From: Candidatus Aminicenantes bacterium | Lineage (GTDB): Bacteria; Acidobacteriota; Aminicenantia; Aminicenantales; Aminicenantaceae | Length of the DNA: 35,849 bases | Assembly: GCA_030673995.1 (NCBI GenBank) | Contig: DAOUYU010000001.1 | Coordinates: 1 to 35,849, forward strand | Reading direction: 5' to 3' | Part shown: positions 17,299 to 35,849 of the stretch, one piece after another | How the letters are laid out: every line of letters begins with the position of its first letter | Numbering within the stretch: position 1 is the stretch's first letter | The notes under the pieces: generated by a model | Seen by the model: only the letters and a program-made list of their open reading frames with translations | What the model was told of the DNA's origin: nothing | Databases searched by the model: none | Translations under genes and position numbers: made by a program

Positions 17299-18831
17299 TT
17301 ACTCCCATTCTATGGTTCCAGGAGGCTTAGAGGTAATATCATAAACCACACGGTTAACACCATCAACTTCATTGACGATCCTGTTCGATATTTGGGAAAG
17401 AAGCTGTGAGTCAGCAGGAAACCAGTCAGCCGTCATCCCATCCACACTCTGGACAAGGCGGACAGCAACAACGCTCTGGTACGTCCGCCTATCTCCCATG
17501 ACTCCAACTGATTTCACCGGGAGTAAAACCACAAATGCCTGCCATAACTTCCGGTAAATCCCTGCTCTTTTGATTTCCTGAAGGAGGATCTCATCGGACT
17601 CCCTTAAAAGCTTAATCCTCTCCGGTGTTATCTCCCCTACAATCCTTACTGCCAGGCCAGGGCCAGGAAAAGGGTGTTGAAAAATGAATTCTCTACCCAC
17701 TCCCAACTCCTCAGCCAGAGCCCTCACCTCATCCTTAAAGAGTTCTTTCAGGGGCTCGATGAGCTTAAACGGAAGCCGGGAGGGCAAGCCCCCGACATTA
17801 TGGTGAGATTTGATGGAGGCCGAAGGCCCTTTCACAGGTTGGCTTTCAATCACATCAGGATAGATCGTACCCTGAGCCAAATACTCAACCTCACCAATCC
17901 TCTCCGCTTCTTGTTTAAAAATGCGGATGAATATTTTTCCGATGATCTTTCTTTTTCTCTCCGGAGATATGACCCCCCTGAGCCCTTCAAGAAATGATAC
18001 AGAAGCGTCAACACCGGTGATATTGAGGGCAAATTTTCTGCGGAACTGCTCCATAAATTCCTGGTATTCCCCCTTTCTCAAAAGGCCAGTATCAACAAAA
18101 ATACAGAAAAGATTGCGCTTTACAGCTTTTTGGAGAATAAGGGACGTAACGAGAGAATCGACTCCCCCGCTGAGCCCGCAGACGACTTTCCCTGCCTTAA
18201 CATGCCGGCGAATCTCCTCTGCTTTTTGTTCTATGAAAGAACCCATCTTCCATTCGGCTCTCAATCCGGAGAGTGAAAAAAGAAAATTCGACAAAATCCT
18301 CTTTCCCTGTTTAGTATGGATAACTTCTGGATGGAACTGCACACCAAAAATTCTCCTTTTCCGGTCTTCCATAACAGCTGCATCACAATGAGCAGTCTTC
18401 CCTGATACAATAAAATCTGACGGAATTTCCTCCACCCTATCCCCATGACTCATCCAAACCTGATTCCCGCTCCTAACGCCTGCCAGCAAACCTTTTCTAT
18501 CTGTAACCTCAAGGGAAGCAAAACCGTATTCTCTCTTTTTCGATGAAGACACTTTCCCTCCTAAATGATAAGCCATAAGCTGCAAGCCGTAGCAGACACC
18601 GAGAACAGGAATTCCCATCTCGAAAATCTCTTTAGAAGCACGGGGAGCTTCTCTTCCGTAGACACTCTGAGGGCCTCCGGAGAGGATGAGAGCAGCAGGA
18701 TTTTCCTTTTTTAATCGGGGAGGGGAAACATTGAAGGGCAAAATCTCCGAAAAAACTCCTAATTCCCTTATTTTTCTTGCAATTAGCTGTGTATACTGGG
18801 AACCAAAATCAAGAACAACAACCTTATCCAT
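17299..18831 (-). CDS. guaA: GMP synthase (glutamine-hydrolysing)
   Basis: 510 aa. The GATase domain (VVLDFGSQYTQLIARKIRELGV, GVCYGLQ) is followed by the ATP-PPase SGGVDS motif and the conserved C-terminal ...PPGTIEWE. Confidence 0.95.
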   Translation of the reverse strand: MDKVVVLDFGSQYTQLIARKIRELGVFSEILPFNVSPPRLKKENPAALILSGGPQSVYGREAPRASKEIFEMGIPVLGVCYGLQLMAYHLGGKVSSSKKREYGFASLEVTDRKGLLAGVRSGNQVWMSHGDRVEEIPSDFIVSGKTAHCDAAVMEDRKRRIFGVQFHPEVIHTKQGKRILSNFLFSLSGLRAEWKMGSFIEQKAEEIRRHVKAGKVVCGLSGGVDSLVTSLILQKAVKRNLFCIFVDTGLLRKGEYQEFMEQFRRKFALNITGVDASVSFLEGLRGVISPERKRKIIGKIFIRIFKQEAERIGEVEYLAQGTIYPDVIESQPVKGPSASIKSHHNVGGLPSRLPFKLIEPLKELFKDEVRALAEELGVGREFIFQHPFPGPGLAVRIVGEITPERIKLLRESDEILLQEIKRAGIYRKLWQAFVVLLPVKSVGVMGDRRTYQSVVAVRLVQSVDGMTADWFPADSQLLSQISNRIVNEVDGVNRVVYDITSKPPGTIEWE

Positions 18832-18940
18832 GAGCAGATATTAGCACAAATTCGGCAACGCATCTCTCTATTTATTTATTTTTCTCCTTTTTCCTTTCAT
18901 ATAAAGTAAAAAAAGAGAACCGTTTCCATTTTTAGGCAAA

Positions 18941-19188
18941 GGTTTTGGGGGATAGACGCAGCGACCATTGAAGATTTAGCCTTCCCTAGCTTCTCTTCGA
19001 GGGAACCCAACGGAGTTACAAAAAAGAGAGCATAAGCGAAGGCTGAGTGTGTAGAAAACCGTGAGCAAGGCTGAGCGGGCAGGGTTCCTCTCCCGGAGGG
19101 AGAGGAGAGCGAAGCCTGTATCCGAGCGGGATTTCCTCGCTGGGGAAATCCCGCGTGTTTTCGAATCACTTAGCCTGAGCTTTTTTGA
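18941..19188. repeat. Copy of the mosaic structured repeat family (head GGTTTTGGGGGATAG + AGCGACCATTGAAGATTTAGCCTTC arm + X module + Y module)
   Basis: 18941-19075 aligns with 25294-25430. 19060-19188 aligns in inverted orientation with 35721-35849, with 8 mismatches in 129 nt by my count. It contains the hairpins CCTCTCCC-GGA-GGGAGAGG and GCGGGATTTCC-n7-GGAAATCCCGC. Confidence 0.85.
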
Positions 19189-19190
19189 AA

Positions 19191-19219
19191 TTGACTTCAA
19201 TTCTCTATTCTTTTATAGT
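19191..19219 (+). promoter_or_regulatory. Candidate promoter for apgM, implying a near-leaderless mRNA
   Basis: TTGACT (19191-19196), a 17-nt spacer, then TATAGT (19214-19219). The ATG at 19231 is only 11 nt past the -10 and no SD is visible. This is a motif match only. Confidence 0.4.
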
Positions 19220-19230
19220 AGTTTCTAACA

Positions 19231-20433
19231 ATGAACTGGAAAAAAATCGTATCAGAAGTAAGCATCCAATCCGATTCAAAAATCATTCTCTTAGTCATGG
19301 ATGGTCTGGGCGGACTCCCTGTCCAAGGAAAAACAGAGCTCGAAGCCGCCAATACTCCGCATCTCGACCATCTTGCAGCAAAGAGTGCGTGCGGCCTGAC
19401 TGATCCGGTTTTCATGGGGATCACCCCTGGAAGCGGCCCAGCCCACCTTGCCCTATTCAGTTATGACCCAACACAATACATTCTGGGCCGGGGAATTCTG
19501 GAAGCTCTTGGGTCTGATGTCGAAGTCGGGAAAAATGATTTGGTGGCCAGGGGAAATTTTGCAACATTAAAAGATGACCTCATTGTTGACCGCAGAGCGG
19601 GCAGGATCCCTACTGAAGAGAATGCAGCCCTATGCCAGAGACTCAATAATGCCCTAAAGGCAAGAATAGGGCTAAAAATCACCCTTTACCCCGCAAAGGA
19701 GCACCGTTTTGTTGTCAAATTCAGCGGAGAAGAACTTTCCGATGCCCTGACCGATGCGGACCCCCAGAAAGAGAACAAACCCAGGGTTTACACTTCACCT
19801 CTGTGCCCTGAAGCCACGAAAACAGCCCAGATTGCCAACGATTTCCTTGATGAAGTGACAGACATCTTAAAGGATTCTCCCAGAGCCAACACCGTGCTTT
19901 TAAGGGGATTCTCTAAATATCCCACTATCCCGACCCTGGTTGAACTTTTCAAATTAAAGCCAGCGGCAATAGCGAATTATCCAATGTATAAAGGATTAGC
20001 CAGGCTTGTCGGGATGGAAGTCCTGAAGGCAGGACAAAACTTATGCGATCTCTTCGATGCCGCGGAAAAACACTACAAAGATCATGACTTTTTCTATGTC
20101 CACGTAAAAAAAACAGATTCTGCTGGCGAAGATGGAAATTTTGAAGCAAAAAAAGAGGCGATTGAAGAAACGGACAAATACATTCCCCGTCTTCTTGCTC
20201 TCAAGCCTGACGTCCTGGTCGTTACATCTGACCATTCCACTCCATCTCTTTTAAAATCCCATTCCTGGCACCCCAATCCATTTCTCTTGTTCTCTAAAAG
20301 TGCCATAGCGGATAAGGTGATGACGTTTACTGAGAAAGAGTGCAGCCAGGGCTACCTGGGGCGATTTCAAGCAATCTACGCCATGCCCTTGATGCTGGCT
20401 CATGCCAGAAAATTAAAGAAGTTTGGAGCCTGA
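19231..20433 (+). CDS. apgM: Cofactor-independent phosphoglycerate mutase, archaeal/ApgM type
   Basis: 400 aa with ILLVMDGLGG, ANTPHLD and the late SDHSTP metal-binding motif of the alkaline-phosphatase superfamily ApgM group. Confidence 0.85.
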   Translation: MNWKKIVSEVSIQSDSKIILLVMDGLGGLPVQGKTELEAANTPHLDHLAAKSACGLTDPVFMGITPGSGPAHLALFSYDPTQYILGRGILEALGSDVEVGKNDLVARGNFATLKDDLIVDRRAGRIPTEENAALCQRLNNALKARIGLKITLYPAKEHRFVVKFSGEELSDALTDADPQKENKPRVYTSPLCPEATKTAQIANDFLDEVTDILKDSPRANTVLLRGFSKYPTIPTLVELFKLKPAAIANYPMYKGLARLVGMEVLKAGQNLCDLFDAAEKHYKDHDFFYVHVKKTDSAGEDGNFEAKKEAIEETDKYIPRLLALKPDVLVVTSDHSTPSLLKSHSWHPNPFLLFSKSAIADKVMTFTEKECSQGYLGRFQAIYAMPLMLAHARKLKKFGA

Positions 20434-24119: not shown

Positions 24120-24902
24120 TTAGGGAAGCTCCTTTATTATTGTAAACTGTACGGTCTTCAACAGCTCCCCCTCTGGACCGAGCACATTCACATGCCATTC
24201 TCCAATCTCGTGGTCCATGATATTTTTCGTGCTCCATGTACGCCAGCCAGAGCCTCCTATCGAAAGAGAAATCCTTGCCCTCTCTGTATCTCCGAAATAC
24301 CAGACATGGGTAATCTCAATGGGAGTTTCAGCTCCATCAACCTTTGTAAAACAGAAAAGCTTGCCCACCGTGGACTCAAACTCTTCTCCAACATCTACGG
24401 GTTCGCGGTCAACCGCATCCCGGCATACAACTCCTTCCGTGACCTGAAGAGCAGCCGTTCCCGGAGCTCTGACTATCTCTTCCCTGGGCACGCCTTTTAT
24501 TGTGAAGTTTAAGGTCTTCAACAACTCATCCCCTGGGCCAAGCACATCAACGTGCCAATCTCCCGTCTCGTGAGCCTGGATTGCCTTCGTGGTCCAGGTG
24601 CGCCAGCCAGAGGCTTCTACCGACAAAGAAACTCTCGATCTCTCGATCTCTCCCCAATACCAGACATGGGTAATTTGAATAGGTTCTTGAACTCCGATAA
24701 TCTGTGTAAAGCAGTAGAGTCTGTTCACAGAGGTCTCGAATTCATCCCCCACATCAACGGGTTCTCGATCAACAACATCCGCACAGATAACCCCTTTGGC
24801 CACTTCAACAGAAGCCTCCTGTGCCCTTACGGTCACTCCCAGATACAGAGAAAACATAATCAGAGTGGCTAAAACTAAAAGGCGTGAAAACTTTCTTTTC
24901 AT
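24120..24902 (-). CDS. Secreted protein made of two tandem DUF2914-like repeats
   Basis: 260 aa with a signal peptide (LVLATLIMFSLYLGVTVRAQE) and a strong SD (AAAGGAGG). There are two ~120-aa repeats (C.DVVDREPVDVG.EFE....L.CFT......PI.ITHVWY.G..ER.R.SL.....GWRTW.TK.I..HE.G.WHV.VLGP..ELLKT..FTI). The DUF2914 assignment is from memory. Confidence 0.7.
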   Translation of the reverse strand: MKRKFSRLLVLATLIMFSLYLGVTVRAQEASVEVAKGVICADVVDREPVDVGDEFETSVNRLYCFTQIIGVQEPIQITHVWYWGEIERSRVSLSVEASGWRTWTTKAIQAHETGDWHVDVLGPGDELLKTLNFTIKGVPREEIVRAPGTAALQVTEGVVCRDAVDREPVDVGEEFESTVGKLFCFTKVDGAETPIEITHVWYFGDTERARISLSIGGSGWRTWSTKNIMDHEIGEWHVNVLGPEGELLKTVQFTIIKELP

Positions 24903-25185
24903 AGCAGTCCTCCTTTAATTGAAAAGAATAAGGTTATTGAGTGATTCCACCTTTCTCCAATTTAAGCATAAATGATTGTTTTTAACAACAAAAAAAATCC
25001 CTTAACATTCATGTGGTTAAACTTGCAGCAACCAAATTCCCTCTATTTCCAAAACGATCTAAACGCCCTGGATTTTTTTCTCTTTTGGCAAATAAGCATT
25101 CAATAATCCAGGTTATATATTTTAGTCGATTAAGTTCACCCTTTACGGAAAGTTGACGAAGTCAACCGGCCGAGATGTTTGAAGG

Positions 25186-25236
25186 AAAAAAGGGGACAGG
25201 CAACTTTTTAATAAAAAGTAGCCTGTCCCCTTTTTT
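25186..25236 (-). terminator. Bidirectional intrinsic terminator-like palindrome
   Basis: A6-GGGGACAGGCAACTTTTTA-A-TAAAAAGTAGCCTGTCCCC-T6 forms a 19-bp stem with one A-A mismatch and U-tracts on both strands. On the minus strand it would terminate transcripts coming from etfBA after the repeat array. A second GTCCCCTTTTTT half-site lies at 25240-25251. Confidence 0.65.
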
Positions 25237-25257
25237 CTTGTCCCCTTTTTTCTCAGG

Positions 25258-25646
25258 CATTGTTCTTCTCCCATCTCCTTCTTTTCACTACCAGGTTTTG
25301 GGGGATAGCCGAAGCGACCATTGAAGATTTAGCCTTCGGAGCTCGGTCTTCGAGGGAAGCTGACGAAGTTATAAAAAAAAGAGGGCATACGCTCAGGCTA
25401 CGTGTGGAGAAAACCATGAGAAAGGCTGAGCAAGCACGGTTCCTCTTCTCTCTTTTCACTACCAGGTTTTGGGGGATAGACTAAGCGACCATTGAAGATT
25501 TAGCCTTCGATGTTCGCTCTTCGAGGGGACCCGACGGAGTCGGGCGGCGAGTATGTCTGAGCGGAGCGAGTTACGCAGCCGCCGAGAAGAGTGAATAGAG
25601 AATGGCGTTAAAAATCTGAAGGGGAGCGAGGCTATCCCCCAAAACC
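25258..25646. repeat. Two tandem units of the mosaic repeat family; the second is closed by a perfect 15-bp inverted repeat
   Basis: CTTTTCACTACCAGGTTTTGGGGGATAG occurs at 25281-25308 and 25452-25479 (171-nt period). GGTTTTGGGGGATAG at 25465-25479 pairs with CTATCCCCCAAAACC at 25632-25646. 25258-25310 is 53/53 identical to 35658-35710. Confidence 0.9.
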
Positions 25647-25649
25647 TTT

Positions 25650-35596: not shown

Positions 35597-35849
35597 AAAA
35601 AGAGAGGGCATAAACGGAGGCTAAGGGTGAAGAAAACCGTGAGCAAAGCGGAGCAGACATTGTTCTTCTCCCATCTCCTTCTTTTCACTACCAGGTTTTG
35701 GGGGATAGCCTTGCTCCCCTTCAGAAAAGCTCCGGCTAAGTGATTCGAAAACACGCTGGATTTCCCCAGCGAGGAAATCCCGCTCGGATACAGGCTTCGC
35801 TCTTCTCTCCCTTCGGGAGAGAAACCATGCCCGCTCAGCCTTGCTCACG
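35597..35849. repeat. Copy of the mosaic repeat family, truncated by the window end (X module + Z/head + inverted Y module)
   Basis: 35658-35710 is identical to 25258-25310. 35694-35725 equals the reverse complement of 25615-25646 with 1 mismatch. 35721-35849 equals the reverse complement of 19060-19188. An internal inverted repeat pairs CGTGAGCAAAGCGGAGC (35638-35654) with GCTCAGCCTTGCTCACG (35833-35849). Confidence 0.85.

Follow-up and report, generated by a model that had tools for sequence, protein, structure and literature searches.

REP and REPIN elements are mobilised by RAYT transposases, enzymes of the Y1 HUH type (Bertels & Rainey 2011, PMC3116915; PMC3337134). The repeat described here, designated Y, resembles them in being short, non-coding, intergenic, hairpin-forming, present in tens of copies and long-lived in its lineage, and in both cases the active form is thought to be a single strand, with the enzyme encoded at an unlinked place instead of in the repeat. 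Their architecture is different: a REP/REPIN is a doublet of ~25-35-nt palindromes with a GTAG head, whereas Y is a ~150-nt three-way junction of 51 pairs with invariant loops, in which a GTAG-type head and inverted REP doublets are absent. Moreover, a REP/REPIN system is expected to co-occur with a single-copy Y1 (RAYT) gene and to flank it, while Y shows no co-occurrence with Y1.

BOX (boxA/B/C) and RUP of Streptococcus pneumoniae, ERIC/IRU of enterobacteria and Correia of Neisseria are modular structured repeats, and compensatory substitutions have been reported in some families of this type. They are either simple long hairpins or carry conserved terminal inverted repeats together with defined target duplications (TA for Correia). 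Y is likewise modular (T arm, linker and Y), has stable predicted RNA folds and is intergenic, often near promoters. Unlike these repeats, however, its termini covary freely, it has no fixed duplication, and it is conserved across an order and not a genus.

A structured unit of ~150 nt with a sharp 3' end abutting the flank, ssDNA-type biology and the lack of terminal inverted repeats are features that Y has in common with the IS200/IS605-derived PATE and with the TnpB omega-RNA scaffolds. The one-ended transposition of IS91 and other rolling-circle elements (Y2 HUH) offers another parallel, in which one end is sharp at the target, the other end is variable and no duplication is made.

The window analysed here (35,849 nt) is the whole contig C49 of a 1.55-Mb, 180-contig, 42% G+C assembly (G000) of a Candidatus Aminicenantes bacterium. 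Y is an uncatalogued ~150-base repeat, mainly confined to one order of Candidatus Aminicenantes (Acidobacteriota). No description of Y was found in the literature searched, no Rfam 15 family reached its gathering score anywhere in the window, and three divergent copies scanned permissively returned only noise (E > 0.01). With ~40 covarying pairs, an invariant unpaired core and tens of copies in a genome throughout an uncultivated bacterial order, the structural evidence for Y matches or exceeds what is usually required for naming a new RNA class. For the guaA-apgM locus the result is deflationary, as the apgM promoter is ancestral and the repeat probably a passenger.

The element between guaA and apgM

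An earlier reading of this DNA, made from the sequence only, had placed a 248-nt element at 18941-19188 between the divergent guaA and apgM genes, and this placement was confirmed. The element is a truncated composite of two dispersed repeats, in which an 80-nt left arm of a T element, a repeat bounded by terminal inverted repeats, is followed by a short linker and an intact Y (Table 1). The T right arm and its terminal repeat are missing at this locus. A 90-nt module of the T left arm recurs at 25280-25369 and 25451-25540 (family D2), and a complete T without Y is present at 25465-25648, with the right end CTATCCCCCAAAACCT. The linker extends a few bases into the match to the Y covariance model, R1, and is kept in contigs C74, C12 and C93 of the same assembly, as well as at the guaA-apgM locus of the same-genus assembly G001. 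The order of T left arm, linker and Y, closed by the T right terminal repeat, is found in C74, C12 and C93 and at the contig end of the window; ten further Y copies in G000 are stand-alone units.

Table 1. Coordinates of the features in the window
Feature	Position	Strand	Remarks
T element, left arm, ~80 nt	18941-19020	+	starts with the 16-nt terminal inverted repeat AGGTTTTGGGGGATAG at 18941-18956
A-rich linker AAAAAAGAGAGCAT, first part	19021-19030	+	connection between T arm and Y in copies of the composite subfamily 'T::Y'
Y, complete copy, ~150-nt structured repeat	19031-19186 (156 nt)	+	model R1, 186.5 bits, E = 1.8e-48
Junction zone, GAGCTTTTTTGAAA	19177-19190	+	occurs both at the 3' end of the element and in native DNA 5' of the promoter
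Second Y copy in the window	35720-35849	-	R1, 140.2 bits, model positions 30-156, 5' cut; T::Y subfamily
guaA (GMP synthase)	17299-18831	-	Pfam GATase and GMP_synt_C; divergent from apgM
apgM (cofactor-independent phosphoglycerate mutase, archaeal type)	19231-20433	+	PF10143 3.4e-47, PF01676 3.1e-43 (PhosphMutase/Metalloenzyme)
apgM promoter, ancestral	19191-19219	+	-35 TTGACT 19191-19196, 17-nt spacer, -10 TATAGT 19214-19219; 10/12 consensus matches
Helix P1a	19034-19037/19179-19182		
Helix P1b	19041-19049/19167-19175		long-range pairing of the sequence-only reading
Helix P2	19055-19059/19157-19161		AAAAC with GUUUU
Helix P3a	19060-19064/19121-19124		
Helix P3b	19068-19076/19109-19117		
Helix P3c	19086-19094/19098-19106		hairpin of the sequence-only reading, end of the P3 arm
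Helix P4	19126-19138/19142-19154		13-pair hairpin

Of the window-end Y copy (inverted-repeat pairs I1 and I2), the first ~29 positions fall beyond the end of the contig and are missing, and a T terminal repeat lies at 35693-35719, on the + strand side of this copy. Y and its companion repeats break Aminicenantes assemblies, and the window is an example of a contig that ends inside a Y copy. The match between the two copies had been counted as 8 mismatches in 129 nt; it is real, but amounts to 7 mismatches in 130 nt (19060-19189 against the reverse complement of 35720-35849), located at 19082, 19087, 19096, 19105, 19152, 19176 and 19185. Three of the differences do fall in one hairpin, with the stem TCCTCTCCC (19086-19094) paired to GGGAGAGGA (19098-19106), where the two substitutions 19087 C>T and 19105 G>A replace a C-G pair by T-A, the third change, at 19096, being in the loop. 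This swap is common to C74, C12 and the window-end copy and thus represents one inherited event, which is weak evidence alone but forms part of a consistent pattern. The long-range pairing proposed to close the domain also exists, with CACTTAGCC at 19167-19175, although its partner GGCTGAGTG lies at 19041-19049, one base away from the position first given.

The element had been described as ending 2 nt before the -35 box. TTGACT does begin at 19191, but the boundary is not exact: the last ~11 nt of the element (CTTTTTTGAAA), directly 5' of the -35 box, also precede the same promoter in the relative G020. The sequence CTTTTTTGAAAATTGACTTCAC is found 5' of apgM in G020 and the junction in G001 is identical, while full T::Y copies continue with GAGCTTTTCTGAAGGGGAGC... 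instead of the junction-zone sequence. Since CTTTTTTGAAA is present in G020, it is shared native promoter-upstream sequence, and the true boundary of the element lies within ~19177-19189.

The divergent order of guaA and apgM is found across the order and was kept in 21 of the 29 loci of relatives examined. TTGACT-17-TATAGT is the sole promoter-like site in 18780-19280 on either strand, and a search of both strands found none inside the 248-nt element. Its counterpart in the relatives, ATTGACTTCA-N17-TATAGT with a ~12-nt leader before the ATG, is kept 5' of apgM across the order (L200-L227), whether or not repeats are present; repeat-free spacers with the same promoter include L211, L213, L214, L215 and L227. 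The spacer in repeat-free relatives is only 80-130 nt long, and the ancestral spacer was probably of about this length. On the guaA side, a block GATTTTAGCAGA...TTGTAAAC is conserved across the order (window 18832-18880; loci L199-L228) and is the putative guaA promoter. This short region lies within ~45 nt of the guaA start and is left intact by the element.

The apgM ATG at 19231 is located 12 nt 3' of the -10 TATAGT. Both genes appear to be expressed from conserved promoters that lie only ~12 nt or less from the start codons, and no Shine-Dalgarno sequence is present (18832-18880, 19191-19233; L199-L228). With this spacing and without a Shine-Dalgarno sequence, the guaA and apgM mRNAs would be near-leaderless.

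It had been suggested that the element supplies or modulates promoter activity, and a comparison of orthologous spacers lacking it had been proposed as a check. The comparison refutes promoter supply. Because ATTGACTTCA-N17-TATAGT is kept in relatives whose spacer has no repeat, the apgM promoter predates the element and is not supplied by it. Modulation of this promoter is unlikely as a selected role, since Y is oppositely oriented in the same spacer of G008 and G020 and there is no family-wide orientation bias.

Comparison of G001, G008 and G020 indicates that the guaA-apgM spacer has gained repeats repeatedly. In G001 it contains the first 64 nt of Y, a full T, 24 native nt and the last 12 nt of Y, followed by the identical promoter junction, and in G008 and G020 it contains a T element with a reverse-oriented Y inside. 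That the element abuts the apgM promoter is largely explained by the layout of the spacer: with two promoters back to back, insertions are tolerated only between their -35 boxes. It can be regarded as a passenger between two back-to-back promoters, which would be neutral for apgM.

Fold and covariation of Y

Alignment of 14 copies from the same genome followed by RNAalifold, as had been proposed in the sequence-only reading, yields a consensus that is a three-way junction of 51 pairs with compensatory changes. The closing helix P1 is in two parts, with tandem G-A between them. A single Y copy has a minimum free energy of -87 kcal/mol (z = -8.2).

Covariation was scored in three sets of copies. 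Within G000, 97.6% of the cells pair, and there are 8 pairs with double changes, compared to 2.7 +/- 1.0 in shuffles. When the best copy from each of 20 genomes is taken, 94.9% of the cells pair and double changes affect 39 of the 51 pairs, the covariation score being 0.423 against 0.135 for shuffled and at most 0.08 for slid controls. In 72 copies from public MAGs the number of pairs with double changes rises to 45 of 51, with a score of 0.366 against 0.10 (shuffled) and ~0.05 (slid). None of 500 shuffles reaches the observed value in any of the three sets, and the slid scores are ~6-fold lower. The family-wide alignments were fitted to R1, by which pairing is favoured; both types of control, slid and shuffled, and the MAFFT/RNAalifold result, which was obtained independently, speak for a genuine signal.

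The G-U and U-G pairs outnumber the A-C and C-A ones, with 104 against 60 in the family set and 14 against 3 within G000. This asymmetry indicates that one strand folds, which at the guaA-apgM locus is the apgM-sense strand. The helices covary freely, but there is next to no variation in three segments that stay unpaired: GAGCGGGCAUGGUU, GAGAGCGAAG and CUCGCUGGGG, the loop of P4. The invariance is seen in two sets of copies, one of which was picked by one of the three segments and the other was not so picked. The earlier proposal that the folded form is under selection is thus borne out by family-wide covariation in every helix, the closing helix included, and at the family level selection on the Y fold is strongly supported.

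Distribution, genomic behaviour and candidate enzymes

A search of 61 related genomes with R1 found Y in 42 of them, from several families of one order, with at least ~49 copies in the richest genome, and none in the remaining 19. The genomes with Y include G002, G007, G010, G020 and G033, and those without it G005, G016, G019, G024, G029 and G034. The 1.55-Mb G000 contains at least 15 copies by nhmmer and 18 R1 matches at E<=0.001. Of 301 genomes sampled evenly over the phylum, only six carry Y: four belong to this order, one to a different family of the class and one to a different class. True matches in public genomes come almost entirely from Candidatus Aminicenantes or Acidobacteriota MAGs. 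Matches to a 17-mer in Streptomyces, Roseibium and others are the ~70 expected by chance, and none is matched by R1. The two same-genus assemblies differ two-fold in size, G000 having 1.55 Mb at 83% estimated completeness and G001 3.1 Mb at 79%, and the 18 R1 matches of the former compare with only two decayed ones in the latter.

Y is non-syntenic, and no recurrent protein family was found within 1.5-2.5 kb of 34 copies. It often nests in a reverse copy of itself, in the arrangement [reverse 3' part][full Y][reverse 5' part]; other copies are lodged within T elements or in the middle of other palindromes. The nesting junctions coincide with the P3 5' strand and the P4 loop, at points where these look like Y's own termini in reverse complement. 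Some copies lie exactly at the centre of long perfect palindromes, such as L072 (G002:C130), with 35/35 bp, and L061-L069 (G007), which suggests insertion into hairpin targets or inverted duplication of the flanks during insertion.

Ten presence/absence differences were found between congeners, comprising six loci of G000 that are empty in G001 and four loci of G039 that are empty in G053. At two more loci G001 keeps remnants of Y, left by a deletion between two 10-nt GAGCAAGGCT repeats and by insertion of T into Y, so that Y is ancestral there and has since decayed in G001. In every alignable pair of filled and empty sites, the empty site keeps 4-13 nt identical to the 3' terminus of Y, and the 5' side of the indel has an extra 60-190 nt, which is partial Y or DNA that is mostly unique. 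In all pairs compared the indel exceeds Y in size, and there is no clean single-unit insertion among them. The retained 3' end may reflect either microhomology-guided insertion or deletions bounded by the downstream promoters. Instead of a target-site duplication of fixed length, these comparisons reveal repeats of differing size (3-nt AGC, 11-12 bp or 15 bp) or no repeat at all. Pairing of the two ends of Y (P1) is kept with sequences that covary freely from one copy or genus to another, and there are no sequence-conserved terminal repeats.

The extra 5' segments beside the copies in G000 are unique, except for a short 'U' module in three copies and an abundant terminator-like palindrome, and 5' transduction was rejected on this ground. 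The U module, ~55 nt long (AATTTAGACAnnATAGGGACTTTCCTCATTTTTTCTTATTTTTTCC), always adjoins the Y 5' end (C146:2332-2392, C60:11443-11493 and, in reverse, C164:3189-3245) and resembles the terminal repeat GGAGTTCCCCCATTTTTTCT that brackets Y in G007. The palindrome, AAAAAGGGGACAGGC-loop-GCCTGTCCCCTTTTTT, occurs in the window at 25185-25237 and in at least 45 more places in G000 (e.g. C1:9682-9733 and C66 upstream of 18198). It is frequent in G001 too, and often lies just 5' of Y copies.

No autonomous element with Y ends was found in ~0.9 Mb of loci and the whole genome. Likewise, no copy split by kb-scale cargo turned up in a search for 5' and 3' motifs that are separated by 250-6000 nt and have complementary P1 arms. 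Where G039 has a Y, G047 has a 1.9-kb insert, which is an ordinary Na+/H+ exchanger gene.

Candidate enzymes were compared by their presence or absence over the 61 genomes. TnpB (PF07282) gave weak matches in 3 of them, none Y-rich, and on this ground Y was rejected as a TnpB omega-RNA. The reverse transcriptase RVT_1 (PF00078), found in 15 genomes, is absent from those with the most Y (G000, G002, G007, G010, G013 and G033). A retroelement origin (SINE-like, derived from a group II intron, or retron) was therefore rejected, since the enzyme is absent where Y is amplified. The Y1 transposase (PF01797) was detected in 27 of 39 genomes with Y and in 20 of 22 without it; G000, G002 and G010 lack this gene. 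None of the Y1 genes listed shares a contig with the listed Y copies. The scarcity of TnpB and the missing association with Y1 set Y apart from PATE and the omega-RNA scaffolds. Mutator transposases (Transposase_mut) are present in 26 of the 61 genomes but absent from G000, G001, G002, G010 and G013.

IS91-like Y2_Tnp genes, together with many short remnants, were found in 42 of the 61 genomes and in none of 14 controls, and include G000:C92:6-320. Y2 remnants occur in 10 of 11 Y-rich and in 11 of 19 Y-free genomes, and the association with Y is not significant. None of 16 IS91-like genes has a Y within 2-3 kb, nor do the flanks of these genes have any sequence in common with Y or T. In these respects Y differs from IS91, despite the similarity of the ends.

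Y was also rejected as a MITE of the DDE type, as it has no sequence-conserved terminal inverted repeats shared with an autonomous IS and no fixed-length duplication. The combination of invariant internal loops and free termini looks like the pattern of a functional RNA rather than of a DDE-type MITE.

Explanations for Y

Y is probably a non-autonomous, structure-dependent mobile repeat and a passenger at the guaA-apgM locus. This reading is favoured by the number and spread of the copies, the covarying fold, the nesting, the presence/absence differences between congeners, the decay of copies in G001 and the lack of a recurrent neighbour, of an orientation bias and of a conserved promoter or terminator. 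It would be a selfish mobile or recombining element without an enzyme of its own, and its folded single strand, either ssDNA or a transcript, would serve as the substrate of an unlinked enzyme. The fold would then be maintained by selection for propagation and not by a regulatory role in the host. At the present locus, a T::Y composite would have landed between the -35 boxes of guaA and apgM, the only permissive place, and would have been trimmed later. Against the mobile reading stand the failure to find a cognate enzyme among the families tested, the lack of fixed-length duplications and of sequence-conserved terminal repeats, the RNA-like pattern of conservation and the indels that always exceed Y in size. 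With no known transposase linked to Y, the invariant loops and free termini keep two other readings alive, one of a functional RNA and one of a self-propagating nucleic acid. To find what recognises the core of Y would be to find a new kind of bacterial mobile element or a new ribonucleoprotein.

According to the first of these, Y is a multi-copy, trans-acting structured ncRNA, a scaffold, guide or decoy for an unlinked protein, whose genes were duplicated and whose mobility is secondary. The unpaired segments that stay invariant across the order while the helices covary, the strand asymmetry of the wobble pairs, the compact three-way junction with tandem G-A motifs and the failure of any known transposase to track Y are all in line with such a function. 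It is nevertheless rather unlikely, as no conserved promoter or terminator was found around the Y copies, and their orientation and location are random and non-syntenic. P4 and the U-tract that follows it were rejected as an intrinsic terminator, because the U-tract belongs to P2, as its 3' strand, and has covaried to CCUUC outside this genus. Moreover, Y is missing from 19 of the 61 relatives and from most of the class, and its copies are disrupted by self-nesting and decayed in G001.

The second reading, that Y represents a new class of self-propagating structured nucleic acid, is unlikely. Its three-way-junction core would be either catalytic or the handle of an unrecognised enzyme, and it would insert by base-pairing or microhomology of its 3' terminus with the target, with no TnpB, reverse transcriptase, linked Y1, Y2 or DDE transposase involved. 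This would explain why empty sites keep 4-13 nt of the Y 3' end, why the 5' side is ragged and why Y homes into itself at terminus-like motifs.

It is quite improbable that Y acts in cis on its neighbours, by supplying or modulating promoters or as a transcribed leader, an insulator or an mRNA-stabilising structure. Six of 15 Y copies in G000 end 4-13 nt 5' of a native TTGAC (background 1.8%, P = 1.7e-7), and Y is enriched in promoter-bearing spacers, being found in 26 divergent against 5 convergent ones. Y and its companion repeats mark such spacers. However, TTGAC is already present at the empty sites in G001, for which reason it was rejected as a part of the element, and virtually no copy among ~145 taken from other genomes lies beside such a box, which makes the adjacency a lineage-specific bias. 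In tandem spacers 13 copies are sense and 14 antisense, with no bias to the neighbouring genes, and a cis-regulatory leader or riboswitch was rejected as there is no fixed orientation, position or gene set. The reversed Y in G008 and G020, the conservation of the apgM promoter in repeat-free spacers and the lack of a promoter-like site within the element weigh against a cis role as well.

A role as double-stranded DNA, e.g. as a binding array for nucleoid or recombination proteins in which the fold is a by-product of palindromic sites, could account for the invariant blocks as protein sites and for the presence of Y in spacers and its nesting by exchange at short shared motifs, but is highly improbable, since compensatory changes keep the pairing and not the sequence in seven helices, including non-palindromic long-range ones, and an excess of G-U over A-C is unexpected for a duplex-DNA site.

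Two further features were noted. The short motif CTCGTGAATAATCCAGG(T/C)TA is found beside repeat clusters and contig ends in G000, G001 and G011 (25100-25125 in the window; the start of L200; L205; C93:5170-5190), and could represent either a further repeat family or one end of a mobile element. A 260-aa open reading frame at 24120-24902 on the minus strand contains two tandem 300-nt copies with 73% identity (24137-24796), which look like an internal protein repeat.
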